NCBI GenBank assembly: GCA_938004185.1 | Contig: CALKWN010000065.1 | Location: forward strand, 90,371 to 154,370 | Origin: an uncultured candidate division WWE3 bacterium | GTDB lineage: Bacteria > Patescibacteriota > WWE3 > UBA101185 > UBA10185 | Direction: 5' to 3' | Length of the DNA stretch: 64,000 bases | Part shown: piece after piece, positions 1-27,100 of the stretch | Numbering within the stretch: position 1 is the first letter of the stretch | Layout of the letters: each line of letters begins with the position of its first letter | Program-made: the position numbers and the translations under genes | The notes under the pieces: model-generated | The model's input: only the letters and a program-made list of their open reading frames with translations | Database searches by the model: none | Told to the model about the DNA's origin: nothing

Positions 1-12
1 AAGATTATAGAC

Positions 13-255
13 ATGGGAAAAAAAGAAGTACTTCTCCGCTCTATCGATACTAGGGAAGAAAAAACTTACATTTTCGATTGTTCTCCCGATAGGGTTTTTT
101 CTTACAAAAATCTTAATTTTGAGTTTGTTTCTTCAGGTTTTATGTTTATCGAAGCGTTGAAGCCGGGTAATACTGTAATAACAAAATGTGCTAATGAGGA
201 ATGTAGCGTGTTAGGCCCGGACTGTATTATCAGAATTGAGTATAAGGGAAGATAG
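13..255 (+). CDS. hypothetical small protein (80 aa)
   Basis: ORF from the six-frame track. It ends 2 nt before the next gene. No recognisable motifs. Confidence 0.3.
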   Translation: MGKKEVLLRSIDTREEKTYIFDCSPDRVFSYKNLNFEFVSSGFMFIEALKPGNTVITKCANEECSVLGPDCIIRIEYKGR

Positions 256-257
256 TT

Positions 258-2432
258 ATGGAAAGTCGATCTACACATACCGTAGTTTTAAGAAAATTTT
301 TATTGAATCTTTTTATTTTTGCTTTTGTCTATTTTTTTGCAGGATTTTTTGGTAAGGACACCATTGCAGCAACGTGTGCACCAGGTGAGTGTGGGGATTG
401 GTGGGCATGCCAGGGAGGGACATTTTGTTGTAATCAGGTCCCGGGTGTGGAGGCTTGTCCCAGTTATTACTGTGAGCACTATTTAAACGCTTGTTGGTAT
501 TTACTACCAAGTGGCGATGGGGTCTGTAAGACTAAAGTTGCAGGTGTGTGTCCCGGAGCGTCATCCGGAAGTTCTCTCGATGTTGGCGGGCGGGAATGTT
601 ACGCATGTGCAGGTATTCCGCCGTGTACCGAAACTTCACCCGATGCAACAACGCTAACATCACCTGCCAATAACTCTGTTTTTTACGACAGGTCTAACAT
701 CACATTTACGTGGAGTGCTATAAGCGATTGGGGGGAGAATTGTGGTTCCAATAACACGAAAAACTACAAACTGTACGTTAAAAGGAATTCCGGGAGCTTT
801 GTTTTGATTACTACAACAACAGGCACGTCTTATACTTACACGCTTCCTATAGAAAACGCTACTTATCAATGGTACGTAAAAACCGACAACGGGGCAAAAA
901 GTTCGGACTCAAGCACGTTTACATTTACAAACTACATGTTTATGAATTTGACTTTACGGGTGCAGGAAGTTTCCTGGTTAACGAATTCCTGCCCCTCCGC
1001 GGATATTTACAGGCCCCTTGCCAATGTATCAGTAACTGTAGTTGTGAGAAGAAGCACGGGTGAGGTAATTAACCATACTGGAAAAACCGACGCAAACGGC
1101 ATTTTGGTTATTCCGGTCAGATACTCTACGACAAGTCCTCCGGTCCTAGATATATGTTTGCAGTACTCCGAAGCTATGTGCCAAGTTTATAATTTGAAAT
1201 GTCGGGATAATGTTTTGCTGGCAGGCGGGCAAAATTGTGCAAGCGTAACGCAGCTGGCAAACACTACTACTCAAAATGTTAATTTTCAGATGTCAAAAGT
1301 GAAGAAGGATTCATGGATCGCTGTTGTTGATAGCGATGGGCTCGCTTCAGAATATTCCAGTTTGGGTCCGTGTACTGCCGAGCAGGTTTTAGGAGGTTTT
1401 TACGGGGCAATGCTGAACATCAATAAACTTCCTGCAAACAGTAACATTTACGCAATATCTTTGCTGGATCAGTTTTTTCCGACGGATGTAGTTGAGGGCT
1501 CGGGCGGCGGATACGCAAAAAATATAGGTGAGTTGGAAACAGTTCAGGAAGATTTGAAGTTCGAAGCTCCGGAAACTGCCAAAACGTTAAACACAATTAG
1601 CGGTTTTATTAAGCCCGGAATATATAGCATGACTGCGGCCGCTTTTAATAGTAGCCCGAATGATTATTTCTTTACCCCGATGGGTTGTGTATACGGACCT
1701 GCCGCGCATACGTGCTCACCGGATGATTCTTATTGTTTCGATCCGTCCAATCCACCGACTTACTGCCGTCCGTGGTGCGAGACTATGGTTGTTTTCAAAT
1801 GTGACCCTACGGATATTTGTTACAGCAAAGATGCCCCGGGAGGTTGTGATCCGTATTGTGTTAATTGGCCTGCGTGCGGATCTATGTCTCTTGCGTACAC
1901 AGGGGATAACGCACCCAGAGCAGCGGTAGTATATGTTGAAGGCACTCCTGCAGACGAACTTGTAATTGATGATTCTATAAGGGCTCTCGATATTCCCGAC
2001 GCATCGACAGCTCCCGGAAATCTTATCTTCATCACACGCGCAAAAATAAGAATAGCATCCAATCTGTCAGCTCCGTTGGCAGGATACGGTATAGGTAGTC
2101 CTTCTCAAATCAATGCTGTCTTAATTTCTTCTACAGGTATAACGGTTGATTCCCAATATACTCCGGCAACTCCCGACAATCCCATAATTTTTGACGGAGC
2201 TCTTATCAGTACTAAAGCCGGATCAGCAACAGACAAAGGTTTGGAACTTCTTCGCGATCTCGGAATAAATAACAACACTTACCCCGCCACGGTAGTTAGA
2301 TACCCGTTAAACCTGCTAAAACAAATAAACGGGCTTATCAAGCTGTATTCCGAGTACGGAATAGACACAGGTTTGGAAAATTATGATATCGAATTTGATT
2401 ACTCCCCTTCCGGAGAGATAGGTGTTCAATAA
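258..2432 (+). CDS. Large secreted Cys-rich protein with an FN3-like domain. Candidate pilus-associated adhesin.
   Basis: 724 aa. N-terminal hydrophobic signal/anchor (FLLNLFIFAFVYFFAGFF). Two Cys-dense regions (CAPGECGDWWACQGGTFCC..., CSPDDSYCFDPSNPPTYCRPWCETMVVFKCDPTDICY...). An FN3-like segment (ITFTWSAIS...YKLYVKRNSG...YQWYVKT). First gene of the pilus locus. Confidence 0.55.
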   Translation: MESRSTHTVVLRKFLLNLFIFAFVYFFAGFFGKDTIAATCAPGECGDWWACQGGTFCCNQVPGVEACPSYYCEHYLNACWYLLPSGDGVCKTKVAGVCPGASSGSSLDVGGRECYACAGIPPCTETSPDATTLTSPANNSVFYDRSNITFTWSAISDWGENCGSNNTKNYKLYVKRNSGSFVLITTTTGTSYTYTLPIENATYQWYVKTDNGAKSSDSSTFTFTNYMFMNLTLRVQEVSWLTNSCPSADIYRPLANVSVTVVVRRSTGEVINHTGKTDANGILVIPVRYSTTSPPVLDICLQYSEAMCQVYNLKCRDNVLLAGGQNCASVTQLANTTTQNVNFQMSKVKKDSWIAVVDSDGLASEYSSLGPCTAEQVLGGFYGAMLNINKLPANSNIYAISLLDQFFPTDVVEGSGGGYAKNIGELETVQEDLKFEAPETAKTLNTISGFIKPGIYSMTAAAFNSSPNDYFFTPMGCVYGPAAHTCSPDDSYCFDPSNPPTYCRPWCETMVVFKCDPTDICYSKDAPGGCDPYCVNWPACGSMSLAYTGDNAPRAAVVYVEGTPADELVIDDSIRALDIPDASTAPGNLIFITRAKIRIASNLSAPLAGYGIGSPSQINAVLISSTGITVDSQYTPATPDNPIIFDGALISTKAGSATDKGLELLRDLGINNNTYPATVVRYPLNLLKQINGLIKLYSEYGIDTGLENYDIEFDYSPSGEIGVQ

Positions 2433-2434
2433 TT

Positions 2435-3316
2435 ATGTCAGGACAGTTTAAAAATATTTTAAAAAATAAAGGTCAGGCGCTACTATTTGTGTTAGTTGCC
2501 CTAACCATAGCAATAACACTGGGAGTTGCTGTAAGCACCAGAACTTTGCAAATGTCCTCAAGAGTTTCAAGAACCGATACATCGGCGCGTGTTTTTGCCG
2601 CAGCTGAGGGGGGATTAGAAATGCTATTGGTGCAAAAATCAAAGTTTTTAAACGACCTGTCTGCCGGAAATGCGGATTGTACTTCGGTCGGTCTCGAGGC
2701 CATTGCAGGAGACAACACTAGGTGCTTATTAAGGTACGAAAAAGCTTCGGGGGATAAAATCGAATCGGTTGCCGTATTAAGTGCAAAAGTATTCAGACAC
2801 ACCGATATTTTGGGCGGAACACCTTACTACGGTTTTACCTTAGCTCCAAACGAAACCAAAAATATTGAACTAACAGGCATGAATTCTATAAGGTTGTGCT
2901 GGGAAAATCCTGACACGGCTGTAGAGTACGTAGTTTACGGAGACACCGTAGTTAGAAATTTTTTGAAGGCCGCCGGATCTGTATCTTTCAGTTCCGATAT
3001 TTCTTCAACGGGTTTTACCGAGCTAAGTTCCCACGCAATAATTGAAGGATATCCCCTACCCTACTGTTCCAACATAAATGTATCGGGAGCATCCGGCATG
3101 AGAGTAAAAAGCATATTTAAGGGTACGAGAGCTGCGATAGTTCCTTTAAATCCGACATCACTGCCTCCCCAGGGTTTCCGTTTATATTCCAGAGGAGAAT
3201 TAAGCCAGGAGGGGGATATTAAGACAACCAAAGCTATAGTTGCTCACAGATCGTACAACAGCGCCCCGTCCTTTTTTGATTATGCAATCTACTCTTACAA
3301 CACCGTACCCAGATAA
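2435..3316 (+). CDS. PilX N-terminal domain-like pilus assembly/minor pilin protein
   Basis: N-terminus GQALLFVLVALTIAITLGVAVSTRTLQMSSRVSRTDTSARVFAAAEGGLE resembles the PilX_N hydrophobic helix plus AEaGle motif. C-terminal motif IAPSFFDYAIYSY is shared with the paralog at 6576..7415. Confidence 0.5.
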   Translation: MSGQFKNILKNKGQALLFVLVALTIAITLGVAVSTRTLQMSSRVSRTDTSARVFAAAEGGLEMLLVQKSKFLNDLSAGNADCTSVGLEAIAGDNTRCLLRYEKASGDKIESVAVLSAKVFRHTDILGGTPYYGFTLAPNETKNIELTGMNSIRLCWENPDTAVEYVVYGDTVVRNFLKAAGSVSFSSDISSTGFTELSSHAIIEGYPLPYCSNINVSGASGMRVKSIFKGTRAAIVPLNPTSLPPQGFRLYSRGELSQEGDIKTTKAIVAHRSYNSAPSFFDYAIYSYNTVPR

Positions 3317-3352
3317 ATTTGTAAGGACAATTTGAGGAAAGTCGGGAATTTA

Positions 3353-3382
3353 TTGACTTATTAATAGAAAAAAGACTATTAT
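3353..3382 (+). promoter_or_regulatory. candidate sigma70-like promoter of the major pilin gene
   Basis: TTGACT (3353-3358), 18-nt spacer, TATTAT (3377-3382). Lies in an AT-rich 146-bp intergenic region. A strong SD (AAGGAGGGGGG) precedes the ATG at 3463. Confidence 0.35.
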
Positions 3383-3462
3383 TTAATGGTACATATTATG
3401 CTGCCTATTTATAAAGAAATTTTTGAAAAAATTTTCAATTTAAGGAGGGGGGTGAGAAGCAG

Positions 3463-3882
3463 ATGAACGAATTAAAGAAGAAACTTAGCTCTGCTTCCGG
3501 TTTTACACTCATCGAGCTTTTGTTGGTTATTGTTATCATCGGTATTTTGTCGGGTATTGTTATCGCAGTTATTAACCCGGCTCAGACCAGACTTAGAGCT
3601 AACGAGACCATATTGAAAGGTAATACCGATAAGGTTTGCTATGCCATGTTTTCATGTGCTACATCGAGAACCGCTCCTCTTACAATGTGTAATACACCAG
3701 CAGGTGTCGAAATTGCATTACCCAACGGTGCTCCGACAGGATCAACCTACAATGTTACTGAGGCGGCTGGCGTTTTAACCGGTACTGGAACATTGGGCGC
3801 ATGTACTTATACATGTACTTACACAGTTTCCACGGGTGTAGCGGTCCAGGCTACAGCGGGCGCAGGTTGTCAGACTCTATAA
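3463..3882 (+). CDS. type IV (major) pilin with class III prepilin signal
   Basis: N-terminus MNELKKKLSSASG|FTLIELLLVIVIIGILSGIVIAVINP: prepilin peptidase site with G-1, F+1, E+5. Cys-rich C-terminus (GACTYTCTYT...AGCQTL). Strong RBS, own promoter, and a terminator downstream. Confidence 0.85.
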   Translation: MNELKKKLSSASGFTLIELLLVIVIIGILSGIVIAVINPAQTRLRANETILKGNTDKVCYAMFSCATSRTAPLTMCNTPAGVEIALPNGAPTGSTYNVTEAAGVLTGTGTLGACTYTCTYTVSTGVAVQATAGAGCQTL

Positions 3883-3895
3883 TTTTTTGATTGTT

Positions 3896-3930
3896 AAAGC
3901 CCCGCGCGCTATGGGCGGGGCTTTGGGTTT
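3896..3930 (+). terminator. intrinsic terminator/attenuator after the major pilin gene
   Basis: GC stem GCCCCGC (3899-3905) pairs with GCGGGGC (3915-3921). It is followed by TTTGGGTTT. Confidence 0.5.
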
Positions 3931-3938
3931 ACGAGCAA

Positions 3939-4463
3939 ATGTCCAAATTCACTAAACGTTTAAATTTCAAGGAACTGGGTTCAGGATTCACTCTGATAGA
4001 GCTGATGATAGCTATGGGGGTAATATCCATTTTAAGTGGGATAATTATTACTGTCATAAACCCCGCAGCATTACGAGCTCGTGGCAGGGATGCACAAAGA
4101 GTTGCGGATCTTAAGAAACTACAAACCGCTCTTGAGCTTTATTATTCAGATAACAGAGCTTATCCCGTGCAAGCCACGTTGGCACCTATAGCTACTCCTC
4201 TTGCAGTGTTAATTCCAAATTACTATAGCGGGACAACATCATCGGATCTTCCTAGAGATCCTAGTTTCACTGGGGGTTATAGCTGTTCCGGGAGTTTTGG
4301 GTACCAATACGCAGGAAGTGTCGGGCTTTATGTGTTAGTGTCTGACATGGAAACTTCTGTTAGTGTTTCTGATTATACTCCATGCAGCAATGTTTCGAAC
4401 TGTAGTACTTTTGGTTGCAGCACATGCGCAAATTTTTGCCATGCCGTACAAAACCCACTTTAA
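3939..4463 (+). CDS. prepilin-type pilin/pseudopilin
   Basis: MSKFTKRLNFKELGSG|FTLIELMIAMGVISILSGIIITVINP. The start was moved to the ATG at 3939; the track's upstream start at 3891 overlaps the terminator hairpin. Confidence 0.7.
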   Translation: MSKFTKRLNFKELGSGFTLIELMIAMGVISILSGIIITVINPAALRARGRDAQRVADLKKLQTALELYYSDNRAYPVQATLAPIATPLAVLIPNYYSGTTSSDLPRDPSFTGGYSCSGSFGYQYAGSVGLYVLVSDMETSVSVSDYTPCSNVSNCSTFGCSTCANFCHAVQNPL

Positions 4464-4950
4464 AAACTGTTTGTTTCTATCCTCTGGTTTAACTCTAATT
4501 GAGTTAGTAATTGTTGTAGCTTTAATATCAATAATGACCGGAATAAGCTATTCATTAATTTCTTCCTCGGTTACTAAACCAGAGGCACGTGACAATAGGA
4601 GAATGTCTGATATTTCGAATTTAGATAGAGCAATAAATGAGTATAGATTGGATAGAGGAGCGTATCCTGGCGAGGCCGGCGTAATATATGGTAGTAATAC
4701 CCTTCCTGTAGGATCTACGGCCATTTACAATGCAAATATGGGCTGGATAAAAGCCGATTTAGCGGAATATTTGGCGAAGAGCCCAATCGATCCCACAAAC
4801 GATGTATCCTATCATTATGAATACACACACAATGTTTCCGGTTATGAGATAAGTTCACGTTTGGAAAGTCTTTTCGATGACTCAAACTCTGACGGTGGAA
4901 ATAATTCGGAAAAGTATGAGTTAGGTAATAATCTTTCGCTCATACCTTAG
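4441..4950 (+). CDS. prepilin-like minor pilin
   Basis: MPYKTHFKNCLFLSSG|LTLIELVIVVALISIMTG. The internal Met was chosen as start; the track ORF began at 4363. Confidence 0.55.
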   Translation: MPYKTHFKNCLFLSSGLTLIELVIVVALISIMTGISYSLISSSVTKPEARDNRRMSDISNLDRAINEYRLDRGAYPGEAGVIYGSNTLPVGSTAIYNANMGWIKADLAEYLAKSPIDPTNDVSYHYEYTHNVSGYEISSRLESLFDDSNSDGGNNSEKYELGNNLSLIP

Positions 4951-4971
4951 TTGTTGTGCTACTATTTATGT

Positions 4972-5535
4972 ATGAAACTGCCCTGTTCCGTCTGTGCATA
5001 TAAAAAAGGTTTCACTTTGATAGAGTTGTTGTTGGTTATTGCAATTATCGCTACTGTTTCAGGTTTAGCAATTCCTACTTTCTCAAGATACACAAAAGAT
5101 CAAAGTTTAAAACAAGCTCAAGAAGTTTTGAAAAGCGAGTTGAGAAGTGTACAAAATAAGGCTTTAGTAGGAACGGGATCAGATAGTATGGATGCTTCGG
5201 GATCAAGAGCAATTGTAGCTTGGGGGGTATATACAAATCACGGTAGTGACGTGAGTGTGGTTGCGAATACAAAGTACAGGGTTTTTATGAGTTCTTATAC
5301 ATCTACAGGAAGCACGGGATGCACCGATGTTACTAGGCAAGCAGATATTCAAGTACTTGATTTGCCTCCAAATATAACCTTCACTAATACATCCTGCATA
5401 ATTTTCAGAATGGAAGACGGTAATGTTTCAAATATTTCTGAATCTTCTTCTATCGATGTAAATCTGGCCGGTCCGGGAGGCTCCACGAAGACGGTGAGGA
5501 TAACACACCCCGGTCTTATAAGGAGTTATAACTAG
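4972..5535 (+). CDS. prepilin-type pilin
   Basis: MKLPCSVCAYKKG|FTLIELLLVIAIIATVSGLAIP. The start was moved to the Met at 4972. Confidence 0.65.
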   Translation: MKLPCSVCAYKKGFTLIELLLVIAIIATVSGLAIPTFSRYTKDQSLKQAQEVLKSELRSVQNKALVGTGSDSMDASGSRAIVAWGVYTNHGSDVSVVANTKYRVFMSSYTSTGSTGCTDVTRQADIQVLDLPPNITFTNTSCIIFRMEDGNVSNISESSSIDVNLAGPGGSTKTVRITHPGLIRSYN

Positions 5536-6002
5536 TGCTCTTAAGTAAAATTTTTAAAAACAGAAAAGGTATGGGTTTGGTAGAAGTCATTGCGGCGCTC
5601 GGTATATCCGTAGTAGTAATAACTTCCCTGCTTTCTCTTACACTGTTTTCACTTAGAACTTCACTTACCAGCTCGCTGCTTATGGAAGGAACAAAAGCTG
5701 CGAATGTCGAAACCGAATTGATAAGGGCTTACAGGGACAGTATTGATTGGGACACTTTTTCGGGGGAGTTTTTATCTTGTACTGACAGCAGTGTGGGGTG
5801 TCATATAGATAAGACATCTTTAAAAGTTACTACGGGATACGAAAGCTTTGTATCGTCAGGAGTCACTGTAACTACAGGATTTTACGTTACCGACAGTGAC
5901 ACTAATATAATTCATGTTACTGTAAAGTCGAGTTGGGATATCGGCGGACAGACAAAAAACACTTATGTATACACCGATTTTACTAATTGGCAGAAAAAAT
6001 GA
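5535..6002 (+). CDS. prepilin-like minor pilin (PilV/PilW-like)
   Basis: GTG start. KNRKG|MGLVEVIAALGISVVVITSLL has G-1 and E+5 followed by a hydrophobic helix. Confidence 0.5.
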   Translation: MLLSKIFKNRKGMGLVEVIAALGISVVVITSLLSLTLFSLRTSLTSSLLMEGTKAANVETELIRAYRDSIDWDTFSGEFLSCTDSSVGCHIDKTSLKVTTGYESFVSSGVTVTTGFYVTDSDTNIIHVTVKSSWDIGGQTKNTYVYTDFTNWQKK

Positions 6003-6574
6003 ACCTAACAAGTATAAAATCAAAAAATAATAAAGGTTTCACTTTGGTGGAACTACTTGTGGTTGTTGCGCTACTTGGTATCTCGCTGGGCGTCACGAGC
6101 GATATCTTAATATCCCTGGTTCGAAGTTACGGAAAAACTCAAGTAAAAAATGAGCTCGAGCAGCAGGCCAGTTTTATCGGATTAAAATTGGAGAAAGAGA
6201 TAAGAAACGCAAATTATGTGGATTCTTACCCCGCCAATACTTTATCGGTAAACAGAATAGAGATAACTAAAAAAGACGGTACTGTAGTAATGTATAGAGT
6301 ACAGGACAATGTTTTATCTGTTTGTTATTCCAGCTGCGGTACGGGAACAAACTGGCGAGCAGTAAACTTTTACGAAACAACCAACACCAAAGGTGCCGTA
6401 AGAGTAGAATGCATTCCCGGTGAGAATAGTGGTTATTGCTTCGGTGTTTCTCAAACAAATCCGCAGGTAATATCGATGTATATAAACATTAGCCCCGCAG
6501 TTAACCCCGGTTCCACAACCTACAGCGGTAGCATACCCATAAGAAACGCCATAACCGTAAGAAACTACAACTAA
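5987..6574 (+). CDS. prepilin-type pilin
   Basis: SKNNKG|FTLVELLVVVALLGISLGV. Confidence 0.65.
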   Translation: MAEKMNLTSIKSKNNKGFTLVELLVVVALLGISLGVTSDILISLVRSYGKTQVKNELEQQASFIGLKLEKEIRNANYVDSYPANTLSVNRIEITKKDGTVVMYRVQDNVLSVCYSSCGTGTNWRAVNFYETTNTKGAVRVECIPGENSGYCFGVSQTNPQVISMYINISPAVNPGSTTYSGSIPIRNAITVRNYN

Positions 6575-6575
6575 A

Positions 6576-7415
6576 ATGAGAAGCATAAGTACTCAAAAAA
6601 ATCGCAACTGCCTGAAAAATAATAGCGGTCAAACGCTGGTAGTGATCGTATTTTTACTTCTATTTTCAACCATGGTCGGTATAACCATTTCAACAAGATT
6701 TGTAAACACACTAAGAGGTTTTGTCAGGACGGACGACAGCGTAAAAGCCTTAAAAGCTGCTGAAGCAATAATAGAACGTATGCTCATAACACCGAATTCA
6801 GTGCTGGAAGGTTACATAGCGGCCGGAAACTGCGACGGAAACTGCCTTTACAGTGTTACGGAGCCTAACGGCAACATTGTCAGTGCTGATGTAACCTTAA
6901 AATATTCGGGAGACACCGACGGCCCGTATACCATTTATATTCAACCCGGTGAGGCAGGCCAGGTAAATATGACCGGGTACGGCACAGGAAAAGTCGTGGA
7001 TATTTGCTGGCACGGTTCTGCTTCGGTTTATGCTGCCTATGCATACGAAGAAAGTGGTGAGACAAAAATCGCTTCTTATGCGGTAAACTCCGTAGCCTCT
7101 CCCTATAACGACAACGGTTTTGATACAGCTGCGGCAAACTATGGTTACCCCAACTGTTTCCCCGTATCTACAACCGGCACGCCCAAATACATAAGACTAA
7201 GAACTTATTACGAGTCCGCTTATGTCACTTCCCTACCCACTCCGGGAGAAACTATTCCGAGACAGGGAATTATACTGGACGCACACGGATATTCCGGGGA
7301 TTCGGTTAAAAACGTGGTTGTCCTTAAAACAGATGCTATTGCCCCAAGTTTTTTTGATTACGCAATTCTGCAAACGAGTACAACTTCCCCGCTAACCAAT
7401 AGTTATAGCCCATAA
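6576..7415 (+). CDS. PilX N-terminal domain-like protein (paralog of 2435..3316)
   Basis: NNSGQTLVVIVFLLLFSTMVGITISTRF...AAEAIIE. C-terminal IAPSFFDYAILQT motif shared with 2435..3316. Confidence 0.5.
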   Translation: MRSISTQKNRNCLKNNSGQTLVVIVFLLLFSTMVGITISTRFVNTLRGFVRTDDSVKALKAAEAIIERMLITPNSVLEGYIAAGNCDGNCLYSVTEPNGNIVSADVTLKYSGDTDGPYTIYIQPGEAGQVNMTGYGTGKVVDICWHGSASVYAAYAYEESGETKIASYAVNSVASPYNDNGFDTAAANYGYPNCFPVSTTGTPKYIRLRTYYESAYVTSLPTPGETIPRQGIILDAHGYSGDSVKNVVVLKTDAIAPSFFDYAILQTSTTSPLTNSYSP

Positions 7416-7465
7416 TTTGTATAAACAGTCTTGTCTATGATGTTAAAGGATAGTAAAATCTTTAT

Positions 7466-8497
7466 ATGCCCATTGTAGGTTTAAATTTCGGTAGAAGTAC
7501 TTTCCGAGCCGTAGAATTGGATAAGAGAAAAGATATCATTACGGTTGCGAATATAGGTACTTACGAAAACCCCAAAGTTAACTTTTTTTCCGATAAAAAA
7601 GAGGACATGGATGTTATTGCCGACCATGTGGGCGAATTTTTTAAAGAAATGGGTTTCGGAACCTCCCATGTAGTAATAGGCTTGGATGAAAGCCAGATTT
7701 TTATGCGTATAATCAAGGTTCCCGCCATGAGCGACAAAGAATTAAGAAGCGCCGTAAGATACGAGGCTGAGCAGTATATTCCCCTTCCCTTAGATCAGAT
7801 AAACCTTTCATATCAAAGATTAGACCCGGACTTAAACGAAAAAGACAAAGTTAATGTTCAGGTTGTTGCCGCCAAAAAAGATGTTCTTGAAAGGTATGTG
7901 ACGATAGCGAAAAAGGCAAAACTCGTACCCTATGCCATTGAGCCCGAAACTATTGCGCTGGGAAGAGTGTTGGGAGATTCCAAGACAGCTCCTCTAGGCA
8001 CAATAATCATGGATATGGGTTTTTCAGGATCGATCCTAGTTGTTACTTACGGCGGATTTGTAAGATTTACAAGAAGCATACCGATCGGAGGAGACATTAT
8101 TACCAAAGCTATTCAGCAGGAGCTTAATCTTGATGTACAGCAGGCGGAAGAATACAAAAAGATCTACGGTATGGATCCAATGCAGGTTGAATCAAAAATA
8201 TTCAACGTAATTAAGCCTGTGGTAGATAACCTTATTTTGGAAATTAAACGTGCAACTGTCTTCTTCACAAAGCACAACAGCTCTGCTAGCATTAAGAGGT
8301 TAATACTAACAGGAGGAACTGCCCTAATGCCTGAACTCTTAACTTATATTGCTAAAAACGTTGATTTTGAAGTGCAGCTGGCCAACCCCTTGGCAAACTT
8401 CCAGTTTTCCTCCAAAATTGAGTCAAAGAGAAAGGATCTTACACTAGACGGGCCTATGTATTCTACGGCCGTCGGTTTGGCCTTGAGGGAAATATAA
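7466..8497 (+). CDS. pilM: type IV pilus assembly ATPase-fold protein PilM
   Basis: 343 aa. N-terminus IVGLNFGRSTFRAVEL and an actin-like fold arrangement. Located directly upstream of pilN/pilO-like genes. Confidence 0.8.
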   Translation: MPIVGLNFGRSTFRAVELDKRKDIITVANIGTYENPKVNFFSDKKEDMDVIADHVGEFFKEMGFGTSHVVIGLDESQIFMRIIKVPAMSDKELRSAVRYEAEQYIPLPLDQINLSYQRLDPDLNEKDKVNVQVVAAKKDVLERYVTIAKKAKLVPYAIEPETIALGRVLGDSKTAPLGTIIMDMGFSGSILVVTYGGFVRFTRSIPIGGDIITKAIQQELNLDVQQAEEYKKIYGMDPMQVESKIFNVIKPVVDNLILEIKRATVFFTKHNSSASIKRLILTGGTALMPELLTYIAKNVDFEVQLANPLANFQFSSKIESKRKDLTLDGPMYSTAVGLALREI

Positions 8498-9073
8498 ATG
8501 GAAAATATTAATCTAATTCCGCAGGAAGAGGTTCAGCTTCAACAGAAGGGCAAAGCTGTTAAAGGTACCAGCGTTCTTTTTATACTCCTTACCGTGATTG
8601 CGATAGGTTTGTCAGGCTACCTGTATTACAAAACATCCGATCTTAAACAAAAAACCAACGATGTTAATTCCCAAATAGATGCACAGAGAGCGAAAATTAA
8701 GTCCATGTCCTCTACCGAAATTCTTCTCAGAAACCTCGATAAAAAATATAACTCTATATCAGGCATGATTGATGGGAGAAACCATTATTCTAGACTGTTA
8801 TCAGAACTCAAAGTAAGACAGCCGCAGGGAATTTCAATTGAATCGGTTGAAGTAAAGGACGGAGTTGTTAATTACACGGGCGACGCCGAAAACTATTTAT
8901 TGATCGCTCAATTTGTAAACAGTTTGTTAAACAAGGATTTTCCTGGCGGCGACCCTGAACTTAAAGATCTTTTTTCAGAAGTTAAACTTAACTCCGTATC
9001 TTTAGATCAAAATAAAACAGAGGTAAGGTTTTTTATAGTGATAGTTTACGATTCATCGAAGTTAAAAATATGA
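8498..9073 (+). CDS. pilN: type IV pilus assembly protein PilN
   Basis: N-terminal INLIP motif, then a single TM helix (VLFILLTVIAIGLSGYLYY), then a coiled-coil region. Start abuts the pilM stop. Confidence 0.7.
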   Translation: MENINLIPQEEVQLQQKGKAVKGTSVLFILLTVIAIGLSGYLYYKTSDLKQKTNDVNSQIDAQRAKIKSMSSTEILLRNLDKKYNSISGMIDGRNHYSRLLSELKVRQPQGISIESVEVKDGVVNYTGDAENYLLIAQFVNSLLNKDFPGGDPELKDLFSEVKLNSVSLDQNKTEVRFFIVIVYDSSKLKI

Positions 9074-9996
9074 ACGAAGAAAGTATAGAAAATAAAATTA
9101 AAGAACTTAATGTAGGCGCTTTTAAAGATGTGCTTTTCGATTTTCTTTTTCCATTAATCGGGTTGGCTATCACCGTTTTGTTGTTTTTCTTTTACATGAA
9201 ACCGACATACACAAAAATGAAAGAACTTGAAACTGAGCTTTCCACTCAAACAACGGTATTGGAGATTTTAAATACAAAAGTCGCCGCCCTGTCCAAGCTC
9301 ACTGATTTTAATGATGTTTTGAAAGAAAATTCCGAAATGGTTGAAAAGCTTTATGTTTCGGAATCTAATGTTCCTCAGCTTTTAGATCAGATACACCAAA
9401 TATCTACAAATGCCGGAATGATGGTGGATAGAATGAATTACTCTTACTCCGACGCCGGAGCCAAAGATGCCGCGGCTCAAGGTAAATCGGCTGATGCGAC
9501 GGCAGAACTTAGAACAGACGATACAAGCGGAATCGTAAATGTAGCGGCTACCGTTATAGGTACTTACGAGCAACTTCAGGTTTTCATGCAGGAAATTGAG
9601 AAGGCGGCCCGTTTTACTTACGTAACAACATTCAGATTCGGGGCTTCGACTGAAGAAGGTAAAGAAGGACAGTTCAGCGTAAACGTAAATGTCGATTCTC
9701 CTTACATGTATGTTCAATCGGTTGCTGTCACGGACGATCCGATAAAACTTGATATTCAAAATCCTAAATTTGTTGAATTTATAAACAGCATAAAAGAATA
9801 TAAATATTACGATTTCCTAAATCAGCAAATTGTTGCGGAAGAAGTTGAGAGCATTGAAGAGCCTGAAGAGGAAACATTGTTCCCCGCCGCCGGTACTTTA
9901 GAAGAAATTCCCGTTGAACAGCCTGTTGTCGAAGAACAGCCTGTTGCAGAAGGAACTGAAGAACCTGCAGAAGAAGAAACACCGTTCGGATTTTAA
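9070..9996 (+). CDS. PilO-like pilus assembly protein with acidic Glu/Pro-rich C-terminal tail
   Basis: Single TM (FPLIGLAITVLLFFFYM), coiled coil, then the tail EEVESIEEPEEETLFP...EQPVVEEQPVAEGTEEPAEEE. Overlaps pilN by 4 nt. Confidence 0.45.
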   Translation: MNEESIENKIKELNVGAFKDVLFDFLFPLIGLAITVLLFFFYMKPTYTKMKELETELSTQTTVLEILNTKVAALSKLTDFNDVLKENSEMVEKLYVSESNVPQLLDQIHQISTNAGMMVDRMNYSYSDAGAKDAAAQGKSADATAELRTDDTSGIVNVAATVIGTYEQLQVFMQEIEKAARFTYVTTFRFGASTEEGKEGQFSVNVNVDSPYMYVQSVAVTDDPIKLDIQNPKFVEFINSIKEYKYYDFLNQQIVAEEVESIEEPEEETLFPAAGTLEEIPVEQPVVEEQPVAEGTEEPAEEETPFGF

Positions 9997-10024
9997 TCGC
10001 AGTTATCAGTCGGTCTTAAATTGC

Positions 10025-10708
10025 TCAATCCCCCAAATTTTTCAGAGGTTTAGAATTTTCTTTTTTCCACTTTTCTATTTCGGCGTGATTGCCTGATAAT
10101 AAAACTTCAGGAACTTTTAATCCTTTAAAGTTTTCGGGTCTTGTGTATTGCGGGTATTCTAACAAGCCTTCGGAGAAAGATTCATTTACTACGGCGTCAT
10201 CTTTTTCAATTACATTCGGTAGCAACCTTGTAATGCTCTCCATAATTACCAGAGCCGGTACTTCCCCTCCCGACAGTACGTAATCACCTATGCTTATTAC
10301 ATCGGTAACATAATTTTCTTCAATTCTTGCATCCACGCCCTCGTAGCGTCCGCAAATAAGAGTAATTTCCTGTTCTTTAGCGAGTTCTTCGGCTAGCGCC
10401 TGGGTGTATTTTTGGCCCCTGGGCGATAAAAGCACTACCCTCTTCTTTCCCGAAGTTACCGCATCTTCCGGAGATTCCCCGTGAATATCGTTTAAAGCTT
10501 TATAAATAGGTTCGGGCATTAAAATCATTCCCGTACCTCCCCCATATGGGCGGTCATCAACAGTGCCCCTGGAATCAATGGCGTAGTCGCGGAGATTCCA
10601 CAGACGATAAGAAGCCGCTTCTTTTTCAACAGCTCTTTTAAAAGGTAAAAATTCAATATGTGGTTGTATGAGTTCCGGAAATAAGGTAAGGATGTTAAAT
10701 CTCATCAT
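10025..10708 (-). CDS. trmD: tRNA (guanine37-N1)-methyltransferase TrmD
   Basis: MRFNILTLFPE...DDRPYGGGTGM matches TrmD (SPOUT fold) signatures. Confidence 0.85.
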   Translation of the reverse strand: MMRFNILTLFPELIQPHIEFLPFKRAVEKEAASYRLWNLRDYAIDSRGTVDDRPYGGGTGMILMPEPIYKALNDIHGESPEDAVTSGKKRVVLLSPRGQKYTQALAEELAKEQEITLICGRYEGVDARIEENYVTDVISIGDYVLSGGEVPALVIMESITRLLPNVIEKDDAVVNESFSEGLLEYPQYTRPENFKGLKVPEVLLSGNHAEIEKWKKENSKPLKNLGD

Positions 10709-10937
10709 CTTCTTTTATGTTAACACTTATTCTTATGTCGTCTCTTATAGCCTTGGCTTTAGCCATATTTCTTATGCTTTTAATATTTCTGCCTTCTTTG
10801 CCTATTAAAGTTCCCATGTCTTCTTTTGCAGCAATAATCGTATAAATGAAAGTTCCGTTTTCCTCAACCTCTTCCACTTCAACGGCGTCGGGTTGGGAAA
10901 CAATTTGCTGGACAATGTATTTTATAAAATCTTTCAT
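10695..10937 (-). CDS. KH-domain RNA-binding protein (YlqC/UPF0109-like)
   Basis: LIGKEGRNIKSIR is a GXXG KH motif. Position between rpsP and trmD is conserved. Confidence 0.7.
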   Translation of the reverse strand: MKDFIKYIVQQIVSQPDAVEVEEVEENGTFIYTIIAAKEDMGTLIGKEGRNIKSIRNMAKAKAIRDDIRISVNIKEDDEI

Positions 10938-10940
10938 ACT

Positions 10941-11312
10941 TTATTCTTGGGGTTCTGCTGTAGTTTCTTCTGCGGTTTCTTCCACAGGAGCTTCTTCGAC
11001 CGGGCTTTCAGAAACTGTACTTTCGGCAGCTTTTTCCTCAGTCCCTTTATCTTTGTTAGGGCTGTACTTAACATATTCGTAGTTACCGTCAATAAGTTTT
11101 TTCACGGCTTCAGAAACGATAGCACCTTTTGAAACCCAATCCATGTATTTTTTCTTGTCGTAATCAAATGAAACAGGTGTATTAGACGGATTAAAGTGCC
11201 CGATTATATCCAACACTTTGCCGTCTCTTTTGGTTCTGGTTTGAGTAGCTACCAGCCTATAAGAAGGTAAGTTTTTTCTTCCTGTTCTTGATAATCTAAT
11301 TGATACCGACAT
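10941..11312 (-). CDS. rpsP: 30S ribosomal protein S16 with acidic C-terminal extension
   Basis: MSVSIRLSRTGRKNLPSYRLVATQTRTKRDGKVLDIIGHFNP. Confidence 0.9.
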   Translation of the reverse strand: MSVSIRLSRTGRKNLPSYRLVATQTRTKRDGKVLDIIGHFNPSNTPVSFDYDKKKYMDWVSKGAIVSEAVKKLIDGNYEYVKYSPNKDKGTEEKAAESTVSESPVEEAPVEETAEETTAEPQE

Positions 11313-11347
11313 AACTGGTTGATTTTAGCAGAAGGTGTTGTGGTTGT

Positions 11348-12067
11348 CTATATTTCCGCCACTTCTTCCGAATTGCCTTTTTCCAATCTTTTTAAACCAT
11401 TTTCCGCGGCCGACTGCTCGGCTCTCTGTTTACTTTTTCCCTCACCTACTCCCCAATTTTCCTTTCCTACAAAAACGCCCATTTTAAAAGTTTTTTCGTG
11501 GTCAGGTCCCCACGAATCGATGACTTGATAAACGGGAGTAACGCCGAATTTATCCTGAGCTGCTTCTTGAAACAAAGATTTGGCGTCCTTATAAACATTA
11601 TTTTCAACCATGCCTCTTACTTTGTAGAAAAGCTCTTTTTCGAGGAATTTTCTGCAGGTTTCAAGTCCTCTATCAAGGTAAAGGGCGCCGAGCACAGCCT
11701 CAAATGTGTTAGCTAAAATGTACTCACGGTCTCTGCCTCCGGTAGCTTCTTCTCCGTTGGAAAGCTGGAGAAGGGCTCCGTAACCCATTCTTTTCGCTTC
11801 TTCGGCGAGTGATGTAGTGCAAACGATGGATGATCTATAGTTTGTCAGATCTCCTTCAGGAGCTTCGGTGTATGAATTGTATAGATAATCGCTGGATAAA
11901 AGCTGCAATACAGCGTCACCGAGAAATTCCAACCTTTCGTTGGATTTACCTTCATATTCATGGTGTTCGTTAAGGTAAGATCTGTGTGTAAATGCGGTTT
12001 TGAAAAGTGTTTCATTTCCCAAATCTTCGCCAATTATTTCTTTCGTTTTTTCGAAATCAAATCCCAT
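11348..12067 (-). CDS. rnc: ribonuclease III
   Basis: ERLEFLGDAVLQL RNase III signature, followed by a dsRBD-like C-terminus. Confidence 0.9.
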   Translation of the reverse strand: MGFDFEKTKEIIGEDLGNETLFKTAFTHRSYLNEHHEYEGKSNERLEFLGDAVLQLLSSDYLYNSYTEAPEGDLTNYRSSIVCTTSLAEEAKRMGYGALLQLSNGEEATGGRDREYILANTFEAVLGALYLDRGLETCRKFLEKELFYKVRGMVENNVYKDAKSLFQEAAQDKFGVTPVYQVIDSWGPDHEKTFKMGVFVGKENWGVGEGKSKQRAEQSAAENGLKRLEKGNSEEVAEI

Positions 12068-12140
12068 CTTTTACTTTCCGGTGCCGGTTCCCAACTTTCT
12101 CCGCGACTTATGTCACGGGTAAAATACGGCGCGGCACTAT

Positions 12141-12377
12141 TTAATCAATTTGTTCACTAATAAGGTCAATTATGTCCTGAACGGTTGAAACGTCGTCCTG
12201 TTCAGAAACTAAATCCACCTTGTATATTTCTTCAAGCTCCGAGAGTATTTCAAGAAGCTCCATTTCTCCGACATTTAAGTCGTCTTCAAAAAAAGAGTTT
12301 TCATGTATATCCGAAGGAGACACTCCTGCTTTTTCTTCAACTACCTTTTTAATTTTGTTTAAGTATTCGCTAGACAT
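12141..12377 (-). CDS. acyl carrier protein-like small acidic protein lacking the phosphopantetheine-attachment Ser
   Basis: 78 aa, ACP-like helical pattern. DLNVGEMELLEILSELEE aligns to DLGADSLDTVELVMALEE with Ser replaced by Glu. Confidence 0.4.
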   Translation of the reverse strand: MSSEYLNKIKKVVEEKAGVSPSDIHENSFFEDDLNVGEMELLEILSELEEIYKVDLVSEQDDVSTVQDIIDLISEQID

Positions 12378-12808
12378 TATTTTTTCTCCAAATGGTTGCT
12401 AATTACAGTACCCAGAACCCCGTTTACGAACTTATGGGAAGTGTCGTTTCCGAATTCTTTTGCAAGTTCCACGGCTTCATCAACGGCAACTTTAACCGGA
12501 GTCTTTTTTCCGAACAAAAGCTCAAATACCGAGATTCTTAATATTACTAAATCAACTTTGGCTATTTTGTCAATAGGCCATTCCGGCGCACTTTCCTCGA
12601 TTATTTTGTCAATTTCTTTTATGTGTTCTCGCACGCCCTCGAAAATGTATTCCGTAAGTTCGGTGTCCTGTTCGCCTATCGGTTCTTCCAGTAAATCTCC
12701 GGCCATCGAAATCGAGTCATTTTTATCAGCTTCGTTAAAAAGCCAACAAAAAATAGAGGCCAAAGCTAGTTTTCTGGAAGTGTGCCTGGGGTCAGCAAGA
12801 GATTTCAT
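12377..12808 (-). CDS. nusB: transcription antitermination factor NusB
   Basis: N-terminus PRHTSRKLALASIF and an overall NusB-like helical pattern. 143 aa. Confidence 0.65.
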   Translation of the reverse strand: MKSLADPRHTSRKLALASIFCWLFNEADKNDSISMAGDLLEEPIGEQDTELTEYIFEGVREHIKEIDKIIEESAPEWPIDKIAKVDLVILRISVFELLFGKKTPVKVAVDEAVELAKEFGNDTSHKFVNGVLGTVISNHLEKK

Positions 12809-12844
12809 TTCACAATTATAACCGAATTAAAGCTCTATGTATTC

Positions 12845-12973
12845 TTCAACATGAGGCCTTTTGTAGGCTTTTTTGTCCGAAGTCTTTACAACATGCACAC
12901 GCTCCCTTTTATAGTGAGCGTTTCTCTTTTTTCTTGTTCTCGATAACGAGTGTTTTCTTTTTGGTACTGCCAT
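12845..12973 (-). CDS. rpmF: 50S ribosomal protein L32 (short ORF missed by the ORF track)
   Basis: Minus-strand translation from the ATG at 12973 gives MAVPKRKHSLSRTRKKRNAHYKRE..., the canonical L32 N-terminus. It is 42 aa with a CxC/C-containing tail. Confidence 0.65.
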
Positions 12974-13165
12974 ACAGAGTGAAATATAAAGGTAAAGGGC
13001 GCCGGTGTCAAATACCGGTTTTTATGTAGGTTTGTAGTAACGGGCGCGTATCTACCGCCCCATATTGCCCCGGAAAAGTTTTGAGCCGCTAATATAAACT
13101 TTGTGGGTTTAATATTAACGGCTCGGTTTAGTCTTGATTATCGACGTTGCAGGAAAATTGTTCCT

Positions 13166-24192: not shown

Positions 24193-27100
24193 TTAATCCC
24201 CGAACCTTATTGCCCCACCCTCGTTGTACAAAACTCTTATCAGATGATCGGTTAAAGGTGCGTTATGTATGGTAACTTCATCAATCTGGCCGTCAAAATA
24301 TCCTGAACCTGCAGAATCTCGGCCGATGTTTAGTGCGGTAGAACTTAGAACAGTAACGGAATCTGTTTCCTCTTGGGTGTCTTCTAAAGTTCCATTTACG
24401 TAAATTTTAATATTTGCTCCGTCGTACGTGCACATTATGTGTGTCCAACTGCTTGCAGTCAGAGAACTTGTAGCTACAGCTGGGGTTTGATAAGTGCCGC
24501 TGGAATATATCTCACATTGCGGATTACCCGACGCATTTGTTGTAAGCTTAAATTCACCAGGTTTATGAATCAGCGTATCAGAGGCTGGAGAGGAATCAGG
24601 ATTAAACCAAGCACCGTAAGAAATGTTGCTGTAGCTAATCCCGTTTGCATGGAACAAGGGTGAGGTGGAACCTACTAGATAGTCATCAACACCGTCAAAA
24701 TCCAGACTTCCGTTAAACTTACCTTCTTTACCTCCGTACCACATCTCCCCAGACGATCCCTCGCAAGTGCCGACAGTAGTATTTCCCGATGACTGTGGGT
24801 AGATTGTTAAATCAATACCAACGGAGGTATCGTCAGAAGATCTACCAGAGTTGTGGGCCGTGCTTCCCGAACACTCATTAAATTTATAGTAGTACTTAGG
24901 TGCAATTCTGTTATATTCCCAAGCTATTTGTGCTTGAGTTCTGGTGTAGTCATAAAGTTTTACATTATCCATGGTTCCGTAAAAATAGCTGGATGCTGCG
25001 GGGGCGTTGGAACCAAAATATAACGGCATATTAGAATTTAGAATTACTCCAGAAGCACCGGTTGCGGGTGCGTGGGACAGTTCCTTATTTAAGTAAGCGT
25101 ATAGAACTGTACCATCTCTAACTAGAGCAAAGTGATACCACTTGTCTGTTGTAATTGAGAGCGTGTTGATAGTTGTATTTGACGACGCCCTCGAAGACGC
25201 GACCCACCTACATTCTATTATGTCGGTGGTAGTTATATAGCATAGATAGCTACTATAAGGATCTGTATTGTCAGATTTTACAAAGAGGTAGTATGTATTA
25301 CCCGCATCCGAAGGTAGTTGGTCAAGTTTAAACCACATCGATACGGTAATACCGTTTACAGGTGTAAGAAGATCGTTATCAGGAACGTTGGTATAGTCGT
25401 TTGTTCCGTCAAAAGCTAACCCACCACCGTTTTTCCCTGTATCCCATGTAGGATCGTTTGTGGCTGGAGAAGATGTATCTCCTAACATACCGAACAAATT
25501 GTTAGCACCGCTATCGTAAAACAATTGCCCTGACATCTCGTCCATTCTCCACTCTGCTACCGGTGGGCTACACGCAGCCGTATCCCCTGGAACACAATAC
25601 ATTCGGTCATACGAATTGCTGGGTGTTACCCCATCACTTTCAGTAGACAAAGCACCCCACTGCGATGTCTTGCCCTGATTCAACAAAACATTCGCCTCGC
25701 CCTGATTAATTTCATAATTAAAAATCGTAACCTCATCAATTGAACCCACAAACTTTCCTGTGTAGTCGTCTCCCCGGCCCCCGATAACAAGGGTGTTGTC
25801 TCCGTCGATACTGCCTGTTGCCGTAAGGTTTGTATTTGAATCGTTAAGTACGCCATCAATGTAAAGGTCAATTTGACTTGTCCCTATTTTTACAGCTGTT
25901 ACACTATGCCACTGGCCGTCGTACACGTCATCATCGCTGGAAACTGTGTCATCAGGTGACCATGTCGAGTCATCGTCAATTCCAAAGATTATGTTTCCTC
26001 CGGAGTTGAAATACAGCGCATACCCTGCGGTTGAGTTTCCACCACGACCAAGTACATACTCGGTACTTGAGGGGTTTGAGGAGGAGTCGGACTTAAACCA
26101 CATGTTTATGGCAAAGCTTTCGTCGTCAAAGACAAAGGCATTGTCATCTACATATGCGTAGTTTGTTCCCCCGTCATAAAATGCTTTATTAAATTTACCT
26201 GAAGTGGTAAATGCTGTGGCAGATGGAGGTGAGGCAACAAGTGTCAGGTTTCGGGAGTTTCCTGTTCGGTCGTAAATTGTTGTGCCTCCGTTTTCGTCGA
26301 ATCTATAGTGAGCGATTGGTGCACCAAGGGTTGAATCGGGTGCTGGGATTTGAGCGTCAAGATCTTTTGTCACTTGTTTTACATCAGGTGCGTATGAATA
26401 TATTTTGAAGTCGTCGAGGCGTCCCTCAAAGTTTTCGCCGGATCCGCCTTCCATTTGAGAGCCGTATGTTTTGCCGAGGAGAAGTGGTTTGTCTTCGGAG
26501 GCGAGTGAAAATGGAGTTGCGTTAGTAGTTGTATTTTCAAGGACACCGTTGACGTAGATTTTTAAATCGGAGCCGTCGAATGTTCCGGAGAGGTGATACC
26601 AGGTGTCTGCGGTCCAGGAGGAGGTGGTTGACGCAACACTAACATCAGATGTGTTCCCATATTTTGCAATTTGATTTACAGTCGTCCCCCCTGCTGTGGT
26701 AAAGGCTCCCCCCACATACAAATACCCGTTATACACACTCAAGGTACGGACCTGATTATTTGTCCCCACAGTAGCCCCTCCTATGGGGAGGCAGGTATCA
26801 GTTGAATCATCGTACTTTGCAATATTATTTACAGTTGTTCCTTCTGATGTGGTACCAGAAAAACCCACATACAAATACCCGTTATATGCTGCGAAAGCAT
26901 AGGTATCGGAGATATCTCCATCGTTTCCACCACATATGGCACTAATTGTATCCGTACTATCATTATATCTTGCAACTCTATTTCCATGGCTTGTAAAGCT
27001 TCCACCTAAATACAAATATCCGTTGTATTCTCCTAATGCGTAAATATAGCCACTTGTACCGGTTGCTCCCGCTATAGCACTGAAGGTATTAGTACTACCA

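Follow-up and report, generated by a model that had tools for sequence, protein, structure and literature searches.

The window analysed here is a stretch of 64,000 nucleotides (nt) from an uncultured bacterium of candidate division WWE3 (Katanobacteria, Patescibacteria), and its first 9996 nt hold the distal part (the downstream two-thirds) of a type IVa-like pilus locus of about 19 kb. Near the start of the window lies the gene of a large Cys-rich protein of 724 residues, followed directly by the gene of a PilX-like pseudopilin, X1; it is the coupling of these two genes that distinguishes the locus. Thirteen tightly packed open reading frames (ORFs) fill positions 1-9996, all of them on the + strand and placed as in an earlier reading made from the letters of the DNA (the sequence-only reading). 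The intergenic spacing ranges from -23 to 56 nt, and the sole larger gap, of 146 nt, precedes position 3463 (Table 1).

An exact-sequence lookup of the 724-aa protein retrieved 22 contigs; related contigs are labelled L001, L002 and so on. L002 matches window positions 1-9889 at 100% identity, and L001 matches the window at 99.4%. In L001, the genes upstream of window position 1 are pilB, pilT, pilC, a 164-aa prepilin gene, pilD, a histidine kinase (HK) gene, a response regulator (RR) gene, u260 and u182, a part that L002 covers only from the 3' end of pilT onward. The full order is pilB-pilT-pilC-pilin-pilD-(HK)-RR-u260-u182-[724-aa protein]-X1-[six prepilins]-X2-pilM-pilN-pilO. The sequence-only reading had noted that pilB, pilT, pilC and pilD are absent from the window. 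This is literally true, but the genes are not missing: the window starts inside the locus, and a search beyond its edge found all four directly upstream on L001.

The same reading had noted the lack of a secretin, and we likewise found none among the window ORFs of more than 400 aa, all but one of which were assigned to other families, or among the genes in the 10 kb upstream of the window (L001/L002). The exception is a 438-aa ORF at 57048-58364 on the - strand, which has no Pfam match and lies directly upstream of a gene for a MacB/FtsX-type permease (55838-57019). PilQ is absent from the type IV pili (T4P) of Candidate Phyla Radiation (CPR) bacteria, and CPR pil genes co-localise (10.1101/335083). 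The secretin-less state is as expected for CPR bacteria and fits this published absence. The domain assignments, together with the upstream pilB, pilT, pilC and pilD, support the earlier description of a secretin-less, monoderm or CPR-style T4P locus. As a pilus cluster, the locus is ordinary and belongs to a known kind.

What sets it apart is the large protein. A scan of one genome per species yielded 39 loci in the genomes of WWE3 and of other Patescibacteria, in whose ORFs the families were traced with iterative hidden Markov models. Thirty-six of the 40 X1-type genes are directly preceded by an ORF of 553-1419 aa that ends in the same conserved C-terminal domain as the 724-aa protein, with junctions that are 2 nt long or overlapping; the four exceptions are accounted for by two contig edges, a start that was over-called and a gap of 214 nt. 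X2-type genes are never preceded by such an ORF (0 of 19). The two partners also co-diverge: the distances between X1 proteins correlate with those between the partner C-terminal domains (Mantel r 0.86, a value reached by 0 of 2000 permutations), and cassettes from the same genome (L007/L028 and L008/L021) cluster by cassette type for both X1 and the C-terminal domain.

Several genomes carry more than one pair of large protein and X1. In related WWE3 genomes, satellite cassettes devoid of prepilin genes occupy a conserved site between topA and rpsB-tsf-frr. Such cassettes comprise small secreted proteins, a u182-like protein, a large Cys-rich protein and an X1-type gene; they were seen in L019, L021, L024, L028 and L030 (around positions 5500-10900 in each), and L030 carries two of them about 5 kb apart. 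Homologs of u182, for which a Pfam search returned no family, precede the large protein both in related WWE3 loci and in the satellite cassettes. In a literature search of limited extent, we found no description of the large-protein/X1 cassette or of its satellites.

The 724-aa protein contains 30 cysteine residues, in agreement with its earlier description as Cys-rich, and these are clustered at residues 40-123 and 477-541. It exhibits an N-terminal hydrophobic helix, an immunoglobulin-like (Ig-like) domain at about residues 130-225, a beta-sandwich at about 228-355 and the conserved C-terminal domain of about 150-160 residues (556-715, nt 1923-2402). In the AlphaFold2 model, which has a predicted local distance difference test score (pLDDT) of 66, the Ig-like domain, the second beta-sandwich and the C-terminal domain are confident and the Cys-rich parts are not. 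The model suggests that the C-terminal domain is probably beta-solenoid-like, with the ice-binding-like DUF3494 solenoids as candidate relatives. A profile of this domain gave no match among PDB sequences, and its homology to the family of X1 was ruled out by profile-profile comparison (hhalign probability 0.15%).

Sequence comparisons place few relatives beside the full protein. A phmmer search against 1.84 billion representative proteins returned 85 matches, of which four are near-full-length at 38-44% identity and a fifth strong match corresponds to a fragment, 267 aa long, of this same protein. The other matches cover either the Ig-like region (about residues 120-226) or the C-terminal 160 or so residues. 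Pfam gave only a weak Big_7 match in the 724-aa protein, with no match to PilY1/PilC, and homology to PilY1 is not detectable. Among nine large proteins from other loci, Pfam results were mostly empty, the only matches being CBM60 (near its cut-off) and GBS_Bsp-like. DUF7305 weakly matches 4 of 41 C-terminal domains, which is a lead and not a result.

X1 has a paralog, X2, located at the other end of the prepilin array. The sequence-only reading had described the two as PilX_N-like paralogs that bracket the array. The paralogy is confirmed by 26% identity over the full length (BLASTP, E 3e-19) and by profile-profile comparison (hhalign, probability 100%, E 4.5e-57). The PilX_N assignment is not: X1 scores 16.8 bits, below the gathering score of PF14341 (25.5 bits), and X2 has no Pfam or NCBIfam match, PilX_N included. 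PilX_N is weakly matched (E<=0.1) in just 3 of 21 family members. The bracketing by a real pair holds as well, but it conceals two different relations, namely the coupling of X1 to the large protein and the place of X2 at the end of a GspH-I-J-K-like set. X2 takes the GspK/ComGG position just before pilM and X1 lies outside it. As X1 and X2 form distinct orthologous groups across WWE3, their duplication is old.

Both types retain a motif of the form RTDTSxRxxAAAEGGIE, conserved Cys and Trp residues and a C-terminal P..FDYxIY. In 21 X1-type and 15 X2-type sequences, G-1 and Q+1 are invariant and position +5 is F, V or L, never E. The exact stretch APSFFDYAI is common to X1 and X2, and the earlier reading had noted their shared C-terminal motif as one not known from characterised PilX. 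FDYAI is, however, not peculiar to the pair. An X2-type profile retrieves about 200 CPR proteins, chiefly from Gottesmanbacteria and Microgenomates; several carry precomputed PF14341, and names among the matches include 'pilus assembly PilX N-terminal domain-containing protein' (NCBI) and 'Tfp pilus assembly protein PilX' (JGI). Judged by sequence, P..FDYxIY is the C-terminal signature of a CPR-wide, uncharacterised family of about 270-300 aa that is already annotated as PilX-like. The PF14341 proteins of Microgenomates and Gottesmanbacteria, which the X2-type profile retrieves at about E 1e-40, share the same length, a G/Q leader, an AAEAGIE motif, the conserved Cys and Trp residues and a C-terminal PASIFDYAVYS, whereas X1 and X2 of the window fall below the gathering score.

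The structural model of X1 shows a jelly-roll-like globular domain, for which Foldseek against the PDB found only generic jelly-roll matches, and the family profile of X1 has no match among PDB sequences. Some X1-type proteins are longer (386-451 aa) and exhibit a Cys-rich insertion of about 100 residues behind the second conserved Cys (L034, L036, L037, L041 and L043; P0015, P0020, P0032 and P0048). This insertion is an extra module on the cap pilin itself.

Synteny is conserved in the 39 loci, and when their ORFs were compared by BLAST with the proteins encoded in the window, one gene order recurred throughout WWE3: PilB, PilT, PilC, pilin, PilD, HK, RR, (u260, u182), large protein, X1, five to eight pilins, X2, PilM, PilN, PilO. 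Two homologs of X1 are labelled candidate division WWE3. The closest relative in the scan is WWE3 bacterium RAAC2_WWE3_1, whose genome is complete (CP006914.1) and was reported in 2013 to encode T4P (PMC3812714). Identity to this genome is 88% for PilM and PilT, 64% for X1 and X2 and 37% for the large protein, so that by sequence the latter ranks among the fastest-evolving parts of the locus. The HK/RR pair is conserved in several WWE3 loci, with 87-90% identity to RAAC2.

L001 and L002, two strains that come from different samples, differ by a single nucleotide polymorphism over about 12.7 kb (L002 about 406-13148, reaching from the 3' end of pilT as far as X2; about 1-6740 in the window), whereas their flanks are 3-11% diverged, with 47 differences in the first 405 nt, 16 in pilN and 35 in pilO. 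The near-identical tract suggests a recent recombination or sweep of the pilus tract, or a chimeric assembly.

With regard to the prepilins, the entire 64 kb were scanned for the leader motif in six frames, which gave exactly six class III leaders (G-1, a hydrophobic residue at +1, E+5 and a hydrophobic helix), every one within the pilin array. Seven tandem prepilin genes had been claimed for the window; the seventh of the locus is the 164-aa prepilin, upstream of the window. Five of the six exceed the cut-offs of Pfam N_methyl and NCBIfam TIGR02532. The sixth, the 155-aa protein, reaches 17.6 bits for N_methyl (cut-off 21.2) and has no TIGR02532 match, but it retains G-1, M+1 and E+5 and has positional orthologs in other loci at 33-58% identity. 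Family-specific NCBIfam matches (GspG, GspH, ComGF) are all below their cut-offs and mostly limited to the N-terminal part. This is the case for the GspH match of the 187-aa pilin, which also matches ComGD; the best family-specific match of the 191-aa pilin is ComGF, at 26.6 bits and below cut-off. Taken together with gene order, these matches suggest that the 187-, 155- and 191-aa pilins and X2 constitute a quartet like GspH-I-J-K or ComGD-E-F-G, with X2 as the putative cap. PilM, PilN and PilO follow as previously described, and all three pass their profile cut-offs. The acidic low-complexity tail of PilO (window about 9790-9996) varies in length between strains (308 vs 297 aa for the protein), and ribosomal protein S16, encoded at 10941-11312 on the - strand, has a similar acidic tail.

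The 139-aa pilin had been singled out as the one with its own promoter, strong ribosome-binding site and terminator, and as sequence features these hold. It alone exhibits the 146-nt upstream gap and an AAGGAGG Shine-Dalgarno sequence. The promoter-like site ahead of it is the top-scoring one in positions 1-10200, an interval in which the total of promoter-like matches is no higher than in shuffled sequence. The hairpin downstream was missed by a simple terminator scan and its T-run is weak; it is likely a partial terminator. Judging from these signals, the 139-aa pilin looks like a highly expressed major subunit.

Table 1. Features of the pilus locus in the window and directly upstream of it. 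In leaders, the slash separates residues -1 and +1.
Feature	Position	Strand	Profile score or other detail
PilB	upstream of window, L001		MshEN + T2SSE 434 bits
PilT	upstream of window, L001		T2SSE 137 bits
PilC	upstream of window, L001		T2SSF 208 bits
164-aa prepilin	upstream of window, L001		N_methyl 37.8 bits
PilD	upstream of window, L001		A24_N_bact 81 bits + Peptidase_A24 37 bits
HK, cytoplasmic GAF-HisKA-HATPase kinase	L001 6581-8420 region, between pilD and tip module	opposite	
RR, 127-aa receiver-only response regulator	L001 6581-8420 region, between pilD and tip module		
u260 (260 aa) and u182 (182 aa), both anchored in the membrane	upstream of window position 1		
u182 tail, last 80 aa of the 182-aa N-terminally membrane-anchored protein	13..255	+	truncated by window start; whole gene in L001/L002
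724-aa secreted or anchored Cys-rich protein, proposed tip adhesin	258..2432	+	
X1, 293-aa PilX-like pseudopilin	2435..3316	+	leader ...KNKG/QALLF, no E+5; C-terminal APSFFDYAIY
Promoter-like site TTGACT-18-TATTAT	3353..3382	+	ahead of 139-aa pilin; top score in 1-10200, 10/12
139-aa prepilin, candidate major pilin	3463..3882	+	leader MNELKKKLSSASG/FTLIE; N_methyl 27.6, TIGR02532 28.5 bits
GC-rich hairpin 3' of 139-aa pilin gene	3896..3924	+	RNAfold of 3883-3945: -24.9 kcal/mol
174-aa prepilin, GspG-like	3939..4463	+	leader ...KELGSG/FTLIE; N_methyl 25.7, T2SSG 20.8 bits; top NCBIfam match GspG
169-aa prepilin, GspG-like	4441..4950	+	leader ...LFLSSG/LTLIE; N_methyl 21.7, T2SSG 21.6, GspG 41.3 bits
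187-aa prepilin, GspH/ComGD-like minor pilin	4972..5535	+	N_methyl 30.4 bits; top NCBIfam match GspH 39.6 bits
155-aa prepilin-like protein, GspI/ComGE position	5535..6002	+	GTG start; leader MLLSKIFKNRKG/MGLVEV
191-aa prepilin, ComGF/GspJ-position minor pilin	5999..6574	+	N_methyl 34.7 bits
X2, 279-aa PilX-like pseudopilin	6576..7415	+	leader ...KNNSG/QTLVV, no E+5; C-terminal APSFFDYAIL
PilM, actin-like ATPase fold	7466..8497	+	PilM_2 187 bits, full length
PilN	8498..9073	+	N-terminus MENINLIPQ; one transmembrane helix near residue 20; PilN 23.3 bits, cut-off 22.8
PilO	9070..9996	+	acidic Glu/Pro-rich C-terminal tail; PilO 26.8 bits, cut-off 22; T2SSM_b 18.5 bits

Based on these observations, the locus probably encodes a secretin-less CPR pilus of the type IVa-like kind, in which the large protein and X1 would form a tip-adhesin module resembling that of PilY1, a function assigned by homology and analogy. 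PilD would cleave the prepilins after G-1, and PilB, acting on a platform of PilC and PilMNO, would polymerise the 139-aa pilin as the shaft of a filament that crosses the monoderm envelope without a secretin and is retracted by PilT. The 187-, 155- and 191-aa pilins and X2 may form the priming complex that starts assembly and ends up at the tip, capped by the E+5-less X2. X1, the ancient paralog of X2, would have the large Cys-rich protein of the gene directly upstream as its dedicated partner, for which it is the proposed cap or adaptor. The conserved C-terminal domain of the large protein would dock on X1 or on the minor-pilin complex, and its variable, disulfide-rich, Ig-like N-terminal part would be displayed as the adhesin. 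As related genomes carry extra pilin-less cassettes of large protein and X1, these may represent alternative tips served by one machine. A multi-component tip complex had been suggested before, which is plausible, although that suggestion missed this organisation.

Several points weigh against this interpretation. The large protein exhibits neither a pilin-like N-terminus nor homology to PilY1, and it is tied to the pilus by gene adjacency and co-divergence only, both of which operon co-inheritance could yield. The assignments to GspH, GspI and GspJ depend on gene order and on N-terminal matches that stay below threshold. Conservation is higher in the upstream 164-aa pilin than in the 139-aa pilin, and the former is an alternative candidate for the major subunit.

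A filament that is primarily a competence pilus for DNA uptake, on which the module of X1 and the large protein would act as tip receptor for DNA in the manner of Thermus ComZ or the ComG minor-pilin complex, would account for the resemblance of the minor-pilin order to ComGD-E-F-G and for ComGF being the best family-specific match of the 191-aa pilin. The beta-solenoid-like domain predicted in the large protein would also suit such a role, as ComZ of Thermus contains a beta-solenoid. Moreover, ComEC and DprA occur in CPR genomes, and a link between CPR T4P and DNA uptake has been drawn (PMC3812714; 10.1101/335083). We nonetheless consider this explanation unlikely. PilT and PilMNO point to a retractile pilus of the type IVa kind and not to a minimal Com pilus, and T4P-2 mutants of TM7x retained competence (PMC11623550). 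The rapid evolution of the large protein and its Ig-like and Cys-rich modules, together with the modules of carbohydrate-binding or surface-repeat type seen in some relatives, fit adhesin diversification better than a conserved DNA receptor. The adhesin and DNA-receptor roles are not mutually exclusive.

It is quite improbable that the 724-aa protein, together with u182 and u260, is an independent surface or wall protein that is co-transcribed with the pil genes and has its place outside the filament. Its N-terminal hydrophobic segment is of the Sec type instead of a prepilin leader, no homology to PilY1 or to a pilus protein of any kind could be detected, and linkage alone can give co-divergence. 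Against this stand the near-universal adjacency to X1-type genes, with very short or overlapping junctions that extend to the pilin-less satellites, where X1 would otherwise have no purpose, and the fact that the conserved part of the protein is the C-terminal domain adjoining X1 while the remainder varies. A pseudopilus acting as the piston of a type II secretion system, with the Cys-rich protein as its substrate and not as a tip component, is the least credible explanation and very improbable. Two GspG-like pilins and a minor set resembling GspH-I-J-K would be consistent with it, but the PilT retraction ATPase and PilMNO are present, GspL/M/C and a secretin are not, and pili have been imaged on CPR cells (cited in 10.1101/335083; shown in PMC11623550).

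The probable reading as a pilus with an adhesive tip can be set beside known systems, among them the PilY1 system with FimU-PilV-PilW-PilX in Pseudomonas and Myxococcus. There too, a large non-pilin protein is encoded beside a PilX-like gene in a minor-pilin operon. Both PilY1 and the WWE3 large protein comprise a conserved C-terminal and a variable N-terminal part, and several alternative PilY1 cassettes per genome occur in Myxococcus (cited in PMC11623550), as they do in WWE3. The two-component pair of the WWE3 locus, which may regulate the pilus genes, recalls the control of the Pseudomonas minor-pilin operon by FimS-AlgR (PMC5979040), although the WWE3 response regulator is receiver-only. 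In contrast, there is no sequence or fold relation to PilY1: the C-terminal domain is modelled as beta-solenoid-like and not as a beta-propeller, and the gene order is reversed, the large protein preceding the PilX-like gene. Membership of the large protein in the PilY1 family is ruled out, as it has no propeller and no homology. We infer that the large protein and X1 are functionally analogous, and not homologous, to PilY1 and PilX.

X2 shares with the cap pseudopilins GspK and ComGG the retained G-1 and the absence of E+5, and its place at the end of the putative quartet may be a further likeness. The inserted domain is an all-beta jelly roll, whereas that of GspK is alpha-helical, and no sequence-level match to GspK was found. 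A second paralog outside the quartet, as X1 is in WWE3, also distinguishes the locus from GspH-I-J-K and ComGD-E-F-G. Within CPR, RAAC2_WWE3_1 exhibits the same gene set and order, with no secretin and with clustered PilB/T/C/D/M/N/O; it is a different species, and in this genome and the rest of the scanned collection the identity to X1 never exceeds 64%. For Saccharibacteria, a tip-adhesin role has been proposed for minor pilins of the PilX type that are large and lack a canonical PilD signal, and host binding requires PilX2 (PMC11623550). PilX1 of TM7x (T4P-1) is likewise a large PilX-type protein that has no canonical PilD signal and comprises a jelly-roll-like domain (PMC11623550), its likeness to X1 being one of description. 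Published work already covers CPR T4P clusters, the absence of PilQ and tip pilins of the PilX type that are large and non-canonical (PMC3812714; 10.1101/335083; PMC11623550). In the literature covered, the papers on CPR T4P (TM7x, RAAC2) describe neither a large non-pilin partner nor satellite cassettes. What is new here is a large, variable protein that almost always stands next to the PilX-like X1 and may be a swappable adhesive tip.

Further pil genes were sought in the remaining 54 kb of the window and ruled out. The ORFs there comprise housekeeping genes (trmD, rpsP, rnc, recG, tyrS, PBP1, pheST, thrS, murA/B), transporters and a 2905-aa LamG protein. The latter (24193-32910, - strand) has six stretches of the LamG type, beta-propeller parts (Kelch/DUF5122) and a domain rich in Gly, with no prepilin leader, and looks like a typical CPR giant surface protein.

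T4P are the best-supported device for host attachment and DNA uptake in ultrasmall CPR bacteria, and within CPR only the T4P systems of Saccharibacteria have been studied experimentally. The large protein with its dedicated cap pilin is a concrete, testable candidate for the WWE3 pilus tip. Host specificity in this uncultivated lineage could have its basis in the additional cassettes that related genomes carry. A broader possibility, which we put forward only tentatively, is that WWE3 use modular, exchangeable tips, in which a large, fast-evolving, disulfide-rich adhesin would plug via its conserved beta-solenoid-like domain into a dedicated X1 while X2 serves basal priming, and in which satellites and tract recombination would give rise to alternative tips and thereby to host or substrate range. 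If this is the case, CPR would have arrived independently at a solution like that of PilY1, and satellite cassettes at the topA-rpsB site together with recombination of the pilus tract between strains would set the host or substrate range of these bacteria.

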